Shown: piece by piece, positions 15,938 through 16,915 of the stretch
How positions within the stretch are numbered: the stretch's first letter is position 1
Layout: the number at the start of each line of letters is the position of its first letter
From: a virus
Length of the DNA: 64,000 nt
Reading direction: 5' to 3' (one strand)
Virus record (IMG/VR): IMGVR_UViG_3300028800_000060
Span: 1-64,000 of that record
Notes under the pieces: model-generated
Told to the model about the DNA's origin: nothing
The model's database searches: none
The model's input: only the letters and a program-made list of their open reading frames with translations
Position numbers and translations under genes: made by a program

Positions 15938-16915
15938 GTGTTTGTTGATGAATTTGCATATATGTTAGATTTATCTATTCCCAATTATACACCGCAGCAT
16001 TATAAAAAACTAATTAATTTTTTAGCACCTATAGAAGAATACGCTGGTTACTCTATTAAGAGGGGAGAAAAATTTCATTTAGGCCCTATCCAAGGTATGA
16101 AGGTACTTCAATGTTTGCATGTGGTCCATTCTAATTTAGACCATATTAAGAAGAATTGTAATGGTGGTATCTTAACCGCCGCCGGTTTACCTTCCCCACA
16201 AACAATGATTGTATCTGCCGTAGCCAAATATTTTGGTCTCAAGTGTGCAATCACTACACCGAGGTTTGAAAATGGTAAAAGAGATTTTAATCGTATCAAT
16301 GCATCTGTTGCCCAAAAGCTTGGTGCTACTGTTTATGGTGTTGGTAATCCTAATCCTGCTGGGCCTGAACATGATGCGAAATGTTTAGTTGAGGAGTTAG
16401 GATACTATCAAATTAAGTTTGGTATGTGCGGTGATGTTGCTATGGAACCCGTGATAGAACAATGTGTTAATATTCCAGATTACGTTAGAGATATTGTTGT
16501 TATTAGTGGTTCAGGTTTAACTGCATTAAGTATTGTCCAGGGATGCAAGAAGTTTGAAAAGAATGTCAAACGAGTTGTTGCGGTTTGTTTGAGTAAACAT
16601 ATTATTGCAAATAAAGAGAAGTGGATAAATGATTTTACTCTCAAAGACCCTATTTTACAAATAGAAAAAACCAAATACGCATATAGAACAGAACACAAAT
16701 ATAAAGGTGGGTTTGATTTCGATTTGACCTATGAAAGTAAAGCATTTGAGTGGATGGTTGAACACTGTAAACCTTCAAAGACTGTTATGTTTTGGGTAGT
16801 TGGTAAAAAACTTTATGATCTTGATTTGATTGAACCCATAGATTGGCATATGTCACAACACGAAAAAGAATTACGAGAACCTATAAATAATTCCATAGAA
16901 AGGTTTTTCGTTTAA
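15938..16915 (+). CDS. PLP-dependent fold-type II enzyme (ACC deaminase/D-Cys desulfhydrase/TrpB-like)
   Basis: 'IKRGE...GMKV', 'SPQT..VSAVAKYFGLKC', 'SGSGLT', 'DLTYESKAF..M' match the PALP-family layout. Start uncertain (GTG). Confidence 0.7.
   Translation: MFVDEFAYMLDLSIPNYTPQHYKKLINFLAPIEEYAGYSIKRGEKFHLGPIQGMKVLQCLHVVHSNLDHIKKNCNGGILTAAGLPSPQTMIVSAVAKYFGLKCAITTPRFENGKRDFNRINASVAQKLGATVYGVGNPNPAGPEHDAKCLVEELGYYQIKFGMCGDVAMEPVIEQCVNIPDYVRDIVVISGSGLTALSIVQGCKKFEKNVKRVVAVCLSKHIIANKEKWINDFTLKDPILQIEKTKYAYRTEHKYKGGFDFDLTYESKAFEWMVEHCKPSKTVMFWVVGKKLYDLDLIEPIDWHMSQHEKELREPINNSIERFFV

Follow-up and report, generated by a model that had tools for sequence, protein, structure and literature searches.

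Why should the pyridoxal phosphate (PLP) enzyme of a phage share a short C-terminal peptide with the DNA polymerase of that phage? The question is raised by the window analysed here, the first 64 kb (positions 1 to 64,000) of IMG/VR record IMGVR_UViG_3300028800_000060, an uncultured T4-like phage of 175,698 bp with a GC content of 37.7% (G000). An earlier note on this DNA had reported related peptides at or near the C-termini of the polymerase gp43 (DMEKFFK), the late sigma factor gp55 (GIERFM), the PLP enzyme (SIERFFV) and an N6/N4 DNA methyltransferase (MTase; FIDRFMK), and direct translation recovers all four as described. Docking on the sliding clamp gp45 is in our opinion the best reading of these tails and, judged from their sequences, a likely one; the PLP enzyme and the MTase would then probably act on newly replicated DNA, tethered to the clamp. 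The proteins concerned, the peptides and the proposed docking partner are as follows, together with one possible extra occurrence of the peptide in an open reading frame (ORF) that is itself unverified.

15938-16915, plus strand: fold-type-II PLP enzyme of 325 aa (PALP; D-cysteine desulfhydrase/1-aminocyclopropane-1-carboxylate (ACC) deaminase-like; PF00291 at 27 bits, which is below the cut-off; phrog_3650 at 4.9e-16)
16889-16915, plus strand: C-terminal peptide of the PLP enzyme, NSIERFFV and stop, a candidate clamp-docking tail (direct translation; end of the 325-aa ORF)
51815-54478, plus strand: family B DNA polymerase gp43 (phrog_262 at 1e-265; PDB structures of RB69/T4 gp43 at about 1e-109)
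54455-54478, plus strand: polymerase tail, DMEKFFK and stop (direct translation), at the position of the T4/RB69 clamp-binding epitope
8382-9044, plus strand: late sigma factor gp55 (phrog_234 at 1e-43 over residues 2-197)
8997-9014, plus strand: gp55 peptide GIERFM (direct translation), with a basic linker before it and 9 residues after it
60569-61297, plus strand: N6/N4 DNA methyltransferase (PF01555; Pfam 6.6e-44)
61274-61297, plus strand: MTase tail, FIDRFMK and stop (direct translation)
25896-26636, plus strand: sliding clamp gp45, the proposed docking partner (phrog_223 at 1e-52; RB69/T4 clamps 1b77 and 1czd at 6.5e-16 and 1e-14)
46095-46124, plus strand: TDRFFVKQI and stop, the possible extra occurrence, at the end of an unverified 70-aa ORF (45912-46124)

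The identification of the gp43/gp55 peptide as the local clamp epitope is well supported, because its position matches in orthologous proteins. The C-termini of T4 gp43, gp55 and gp33 are highly similar and interchangeable clamp-binding epitopes, gp45 is the one partner that both gp43 and gp55 reach through them, and in gp55 the epitope comes after a divergent linker of approximately 17 residues (PMC2988020). The premise of the earlier note, a (S/T)LDFL(F/Y)-type peptide in these T4 proteins, is borne out by the T4 record, in which gp43 ends ASLDFLFG and gp55 ends SLDFLYEAND. At the positions of the T4 epitopes, gp43 and gp55 of the window carry [I/M]-E-[K/R]-F-[F/M]; five residues follow SLDFLY in T4 gp55, and nine follow GIERFM in the gp55 of the window. 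The alignment of the window gp43 with that of RB69 stops 18 residues short of the C-terminus. A structure of the RB69 clamp with its peptide is available as 1b8h.

The recurrence of this peptide on further proteins was compared with chance. The consensus of the earlier note, written as [ILMV][ED][RKQ]F[FML], is a pattern defined post hoc; it occurs five times in about 279 proteins, four times within 10 residues of a C-terminus, as compared with a mean of 0.08 and a maximum of 2 in 1000 per-protein shuffles. Circularity was avoided by an a priori pattern, [IM]E[KR]F[FM], built from gp43 and gp55 only. Its sole further match in the proteome of G000 is the C-terminus of the PLP enzyme, and a C-terminal match arises in 0.75% of 2000 shuffles. 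The pattern derived from gp43 and gp55 again matches only the PLP C-terminus in a related phage with a complete genome of 179.7 kb (G001), with a shuffle frequency of 0.9%. When 271 protein tails were ranked by BLOSUM similarity to the last six residues of the polymerase, the tail of the PLP enzyme came first against its own polymerase, in G000 and in G001.

Homologues of the PLP enzyme were located in 78 viral and 80 metagenomic loci. Those of G000 and G001 are 64% identical and the two polymerases 61%, and the tails have changed in step: the polymerase of G001 ends DMEQFFI and its PLP enzyme FMEQFFV, both shifted to MEQFF, and gp55 ends GIEKFMVVV, to be compared with ME-K-FF (polymerase), IE-R-FM (gp55) and IE-R-FF (PLP enzyme) in G000. 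Further close homologues of the PLP enzyme end LEKFFI, MDQFFI, LDKFFI and IDNFFVSI, behind linkers of different sequence. FF, followed by zero to three residues, is the end of 88 of the 123 distinct homologues with at least 44% identity, and 14 end in a hydrophobic residue and F or W. An FF end was found in 2 of 29 distant homologues, proteins of about 291 aa that stop just past the catalytic core, and in none of 293 other conserved ORFs from the same loci. The homologue encoded by G004, a complete genome of 44 kb in which neither gp43 nor gp45 is detectable, serves as a negative control and has a non-aromatic end (SPPD/R). In G002 the PLP tail is ..ESLW, and the polymerase is truncated by the end of the contig.

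Tail-type peptides are also present on neighbouring proteins. The GNAT-like gene that follows the PLP gene ends DKDWF in G001, TALF in L003 and LLDKFAKS in L060, where gp55 ends NLEDFII. Judging from these ends, the peptide appears to move among the enzymes of the genomic island to which the PLP gene belongs.

The covariation extends to a distant marine clade, in which the PLP enzyme is approximately 50% and the polymerase approximately 28% identical to those of the window. In all the marine loci analysed that include both a polymerase C-terminus and a PLP enzyme, the tail has the form [S/T]-[I/L/M]-E-[R/K]-F-F on the polymerase and H-x-F-F on the PLP enzyme. An exact FF end is limited to 3 of the 158 proteins of the marine genome G006 (131.8 kb): SIERFF in the polymerase, KHDFF in the PLP enzyme and KHEFF in the product of the next gene. 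The DNA methyltransferase of G006 ends NEWF. On several marine-clade contigs (L006, positions 5832-7406 and 8426-9214, L019, L020, L023, L025, L026 and L041) two ORFs separated by about 1 kb encode the polymerase; the N-terminal piece ends ..LLETDDFL[G/S], which is T4 LDFL-like, and the C-terminal piece keeps ..ERFF.

The MTase makes a weaker case than the PLP enzyme. Its Pfam domain stops at residue 224 of 242, so that the tail is beyond it. The C-termini are KLTLI and KLKFL in homologues at 66-68% identity and ..[D/N]LF or ..KLI in several more distant ones, which would fit a docking that is lineage specific. Many phage-type PF01555 methyltransferases (P0053-P0080) have a short tail after the domain, of the form ..[E/K][D/N]LF, ..LFE or ..Q-x-[K/R]-L-I; these may be the clamp-type docking tails of other lineages.

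What kind of enzyme carries the tail? The start of the PLP gene is GTG at 15938, or possibly ATG at 15962. An AlphaFold2 model built on a 45-sequence alignment, with a predicted local distance difference test score (pLDDT) of 92 and a predicted TM-score of 0.90, is confident to about residue 310; in the last 15 or so residues pLDDT is 73 falling to 52, with a short helix at 319-322. A low-confidence tail with a short helix has the look that would be expected of a tethered docking peptide. Foldseek finds 4d8w as the best match of the model (E 9e-12), among D-cysteine desulfhydrase and ACC deaminase structures that include 1j0a, the template used for gp226 of phage ViI (PMC8989533). That protein is a PLP-dependent decarboxylase acting on O-serinyl-thymidine in DNA, with K92 proposed as the PLP lysine (PMC8989533). 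Among cultured phages, tblastn with the PLP enzyme matched only Ackermannviridae proteins. BLASTP aligns it with ViI gp226 (YP_004327553) at E 9e-9 and 23% identity, K55 aligning with K92, and K55 is invariant in the 45 homologues.

The gene next to the PLP gene points in the same direction.

14177-15877, plus strand: 566-aa amino-MTase-fold protein (p566; motifs DPSAGWGG and SPPY; weak PF01555 match), without a clamp-type tail

An amino-MTase-fold gene neighbours the PLP gene in 55 of the 78 viral loci. Natural fusions of the PLP enzyme with the amino-MTase-fold protein also occur (L156, L157, L158, L160, L164 and L167); they are approximately 800 aa long and end ..EPILIFLKD and similar. Such fusions are Rosetta-stone evidence that the two enzymes act together. 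In G006 an operon encodes the polymerase, the PLP enzyme, a CxxCxxCC protein, a shikimate-kinase-like P-loop kinase, a radical-SAM/SPASM enzyme and an MTase-fold protein, and this mix of enzymes resembles known hypermodification clusters. The part of the operon from the PLP gene to the radical-SAM gene lies at 63099-69430 (L183:3099-9430), with the MTase-fold gene after it.

The ViI-type pathway of thymidine hypermodification was considered for G000 and rejected. Searches of G000, G001, G003 and G006 by tblastn with ViI gp66, gp67, gp160, gp243 and gp247 matched only the PLP gene. There is no PF00303 match in G000, and a ThyA-family hydroxymethylase, a 5-hydroxymethyldeoxyuridine (5-hmdU) DNA kinase and an aGPT-Pplase were not detected in it. 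The PLP enzyme therefore falls outside the known thymidine pathway.

The more far-reaching claims of the earlier note fare well against these data. It had taken the shared peptide for the local clamp-binding motif, a view that the matching positions in gp43 and gp55, the conservation of the PLP tail and its tracking of the polymerase tail all favour; conservation in the PLP homologues of related phages, which it had proposed to check, was found, the tail being both kept and changed together with that of the polymerase. Its suggestion that the PLP enzyme is not an ordinary metabolic gene gains independent support from the gp226 homology, the aligned PLP lysine, the amino-MTase-fold neighbour and the marine operon.

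A parallel is offered by the phages in which DNA hypermodification has been proven.

35129-38125 (L177): ViI DNA polymerase, tail-bearing
39620-40534 (L177): ViI 5-hmdU DNA kinase, tail-bearing
41077-42312 (L177): ViI serine:DNA transferase, tail-bearing

The tail reads ..RRVNLLSMMGKKG in the ViI polymerase, ..SSVSLLGLMRKA in gp243, the 5-hmdU DNA kinase of proven function, and ..TSVNLMSLLKR in gp247, the serine:DNA transferase, likewise proven. Among other ViI proteins, the gp160 paralogue has ..SVNLLDRL.. and one of 70 aa ends ..KVNLLSLMRK. In ViI, Dickeya phage PP35 (L188) and Klebsiella phage 0507-KN2-1 (L189) the polymerase ends ..VNLL[SA]MM.., and the kinase and the transferase have the same type of peptide. 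Polymerase, kinase and transferase of three Ackermannviridae genera therefore have a tail of the form V-[N/S]-L-[L/M]-x-[L/M]-[L/M] behind divergent linkers. In the gp226 PLP enzymes, ..PVN[E/G]F.. is retained. The clamp is unmentioned in the thymidine hypermodification literature searched, and full-text searches gave only the interaction of T4 alpha-glucosyltransferase (alpha-GT) with gp45.

Clamp docking is thus supported by the position of the gp43/gp55 peptide, the a priori motif test, conservation, covariation, the negative control G004, the structural context of the tail and the ViI parallel. We infer the following scenario. A hydrophobic-[D/E]-x-F-[F/M] peptide at or near the C-terminus would be this lineage's version of the gp45-binding epitope of the T4 family, holding the polymerase on the clamp through gp43 and linking late transcription to the clamp through gp55. 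The PLP enzyme, and probably the N6/N4 methyltransferase, would have gained this peptide as well, on a flexible linker that lies beyond the catalytic domain. Each loaded gp45 trimer would offer three pockets for docking on replicating DNA, so that these enzymes could dock and be held on the newly made duplex, where they would be locally concentrated at sites still to be modified. In this scenario the PLP enzyme would tailor DNA and, given its homology to gp226, would most likely process an amino-acid-type adduct put on the base by the adjoining amino-MTase-fold protein. We have low confidence in the details of this chemistry, in which the MTase-fold protein would install the adduct on an exocyclic amine and the PLP enzyme would tailor it.

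A broader proposal can be put forward only tentatively, as one that may well not hold in full. Polymerase-type tails could be a portable label of post-replicative DNA-modifying enzymes in phages with a gp45 clamp, as in the window, in the marine clade and on the ViI kinase and transferase, and the PLP/MTase-fold pair could represent a new clamp-tethered hypermodification pathway that places an amino-acid adduct on the exocyclic amine of C or A, not on 5-hydroxymethyl-uracil.

Several observations weigh against clamp docking or narrow its support. Proteins ending in FF are in no excess over chance in G000 or G001: two proteins of G000 have FF in their last four residues and 1.9 are expected. 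Since the plain FF count is that of chance, the signal resides in the five-residue match, the identity of the carriers and their conservation. The pattern tests in G000 and G001 are not independent, because the two genomes are related. Nineteen of the 123 close PLP homologues have a non-aromatic end, and the PLP tail of the marine clade (E-H-x-F-F) has only the terminal FF in common with the polymerase tail (I-E-R-F-F). Only one homologue of the MTase, a close one at 82% identity that ends VIDRFMK, keeps the tail, and G001 has no orthologue of the window MTase. An orthologue of gp33 with the tail was looked for and none was identified. Finally, T4 alpha-GT binds gp45 without an SLDFL tail, so that a tail is unnecessary for clamp clients and is not proof alone.

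Other explanations of the tails have to be weighed against docking on gp45. The tail could be docked by a different hub of the replication or nucleotide-synthesis machinery, such as the single-strand-binding protein, the helicase loader or RNA polymerase; we consider this unlikely. Other terminal-Phe docking systems do exist in phages, as indicated by the 11 genes of G006 that end in F between 53,993 and 81,673 and by at least nine GDF-ending proteins in G003, which is not a T4-type phage. However, the T4 epitopes of gp43 and gp55 are interchangeable and have gp45 as their common partner (PMC2988020), the window peptides stand at those very positions, and the genome without detectable gp45 or gp43 is also without an aromatic PLP tail. 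It is similarly improbable, in our estimation, that the tail serves the PLP enzyme itself, as a lid or in contacts within an oligomer or with the MTase-fold protein, that its likeness to the polymerase is a coincidence, and that the product of the island is a small molecule or glycan and not a DNA modification. The acyl carrier protein (ACP), FkbH-like HAD protein, TylF/FkbM methyltransferases and GT10/GT2 enzymes of the island are indeed typical of sugar or polyketide tailoring, FF ends are not over-represented in G000, and the fusions, which show that the PLP enzyme works with p566, make a partner contact conceivable. Yet the tail is dispensable in these same fusions, it is modelled with low confidence behind a variable linker, it changes with the polymerase tail in G001 and has the exact terminal FF of the polymerase in the marine clade. 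Moreover, an unrelated DNA MTase bears the same peptide, other phages have the tail on different island enzymes such as the GNAT-like one, and a homologue of the PLP enzyme, itself PLP-dependent, has proven action on DNA.

A chance likeness of tails encoded by AT-rich DNA, in which Phe is TTT or TTC, or a constraint from a downstream ribosome-binding site, is already disfavoured and seems to us very improbable. The GC content of the genome is low, the stop codon of the PLP gene overlaps the following start codon, which is preceded by GAAAGG at a distance of 11 nt, and five-residue motifs are readily found post hoc. Against this, F is not enriched in the last five residues across the genome, the shuffle frequency of the a priori pattern is about 0.008 in each of the two genomes, and FF is kept in most of the close PLP homologues. 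The codon of the basic residue differs among the four tails (AGG, AAA, CGT and AGA), and among the orthologues the acidic-x step is GAG-AAA, GAT-AAA or GAA-CAA. As tails and orthologues use different codons, an origin from a DNA repeat or from a ribosome-binding site is excluded. We therefore retain docking on gp45 as the preferred reading.

Additional carriers of the peptide in the window phage were considered and none was accepted. The 70-aa ORF at 45912-46124, regarded as a gp33 candidate, has no PHROG, Pfam or phage match and no orthologue in G001; it stays unverified and may not be a gene. An 85-aa ORF (50225-50482, ..DDLRKIFSPK), third in the tail ranking, has no family and no homologue in G001, and the tail of the helicase gp41 (..KERFKEFKV) is not kept there. 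Two N-terminal matches were also discarded: MRHDRFM in dCMP deaminase reads MRHDRHM in G001, and MTLEKFLV in a 258-aa protein belongs to a start that is a hydrophobic, membrane-type segment.

The remainder of the window is that of a T4-type phage. The gene order is gp55, gp47, gp46, a variable island, gp45, gp44, gp62 and regA, followed downstream by DNA ligase, the family B polymerase gp43, which is approximately 40% identical to cyanophage gp43, UvsX, the gp41 helicase, dCMP deaminase and the N6/N4 DNA methyltransferase.

27456-28403, plus strand: clamp loader gp44 (phrog_168 at 7e-113)
28582-28992, plus strand: clamp loader gp62 (phrog_225 at 2e-31)

The island (12193-20251) encodes the ACP, the FkbH-like HAD protein, a TylF O-methyltransferase, the MTase-fold protein and the PLP enzyme, and then a 152-aa protein, a GT10 fucosyltransferase, an FkbM methyltransferase and a double GT2. 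Relatives have a clamp-type tail on other island members, namely the 152-aa GNAT-like protein and the FkbH-like protein.

The non-T4 phage G003 (complete, 108.9 kb; L091-L096), in which gp43 and gp45 are not detectable, deserves separate mention. Besides its GDF-ending proteins, five proteins end in [R/L/A]-L-F, and this set includes its PLP homologue (..RKGLLF) and an adjoining 722-aa MTase-like protein (..VGNRLF). The two sets of ends suggest two different terminal-Phe docking systems in this phage.

If the tail docks on gp45, the chemical masking of phage DNA would be physically coupled to the replication fork, which would explain how unmodified sites are shielded before host nucleases arrive. 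It would also provide a cheap sequence flag: in a phage with a gp45 clamp, an enzyme of unknown role would become a candidate for action on DNA if its tail resembles that of the polymerase. In the window this criterion singles out a PLP enzyme that its family annotation (ACC deaminase/D-cysteine desulfhydrase) would assign to ordinary metabolism, and marks an uncharacterised PLP and amino-MTase-fold pathway, widespread in marine and freshwater phage contigs, as probably DNA-directed. Clamp-client peptides as such are already known, with functional precedents in T4 alpha-GT and in eukaryotic DNMT1 and PCNA.

How do the tails compare with known clamp ligands? The bacterial beta clamp is a DnaN dimer, and its binding motif is a pentapeptide of the QL[SD]LF type. 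It was rejected as a model, as the window tails are without a Q-L core and gp45, a trimer, is the clamp that the phage itself encodes. The ..SLF (P0006-P0014 and P0019) or ..GLLF tails of PLP homologues from other contigs may be of the bacterial beta-clamp type; one such homologue belongs to a phage without detectable gp45. The PIP box of PCNA ligands, carried for example by DNMT1, is Q-x-x-[ILM]-x-x-[FY]-[FY], and gp45 is a PCNA-like trimer. The peptide [I/M]-E-[K/R]-F-F has the same h-x-x-a-a spacing as the core of this box; unlike the PIP box, it lacks a conserved Gln at the first position, where N or S stands, and is strictly C-terminal, and no evolutionary link is implied. As a eukaryotic analogue of the docking proposed for the MTase, a maintenance DNA methyltransferase is tethered to the PCNA clamp.

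The PLP enzyme itself is comparable to ViI gp226 and M6 gp52, the PLP decarboxylases of thymidine hypermodification, in being a fold-type-II PLP enzyme in a phage with a T4-like replisome. It differs from gp226 in its setting, with an SPPY-containing amino-MTase-fold protein as its constant partner.

The T4 alpha-GT is the nearest functional counterpart. An interaction of this enzyme with gp45 was reportedly described by Sommer et al. in 2004. Co-purification of the enzyme with gp45 has since confirmed the interaction, which is not the main determinant of the ratio of alpha to beta glucosylation (PMC13216743). The T4 enzyme ends ..KEQFDIITK, without an SLDFL-type peptide, and was rejected as a precedent for the motif; it is a precedent for clamp association only. 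Both cases concern an enzyme that modifies DNA after replication in a phage of the T4 type; in T4 it is found in physical association with the clamp, and here such an association is proposed. Unlike in T4 alpha-GT, the link here would be a polymerase-type tail, on the PLP enzyme and on the MTase.

The closest likeness is to the epitopes of T4 and RB69 themselves. Unlike in T4, the peptide is carried in the window by a PLP enzyme and a DNA methyltransferase, neither of which is among the clamp ligands listed in PMC2988020, and its sequence, [I/M]-[E/D]-[K/R]-F-[F/M], differs from SLDFL[F/Y]. As in T4 and RB69, it is a short hydrophobic-plus-acidic peptide at or near the C-terminus, behind a variable linker; the same two orthologues, gp43 and gp55, carry it, in a phage that encodes gp45 and gp44/62, and its pattern of hydrophobic-acidic-x-hydrophobic-aromatic residues aligns with L-D-F-L-F/Y of T4.

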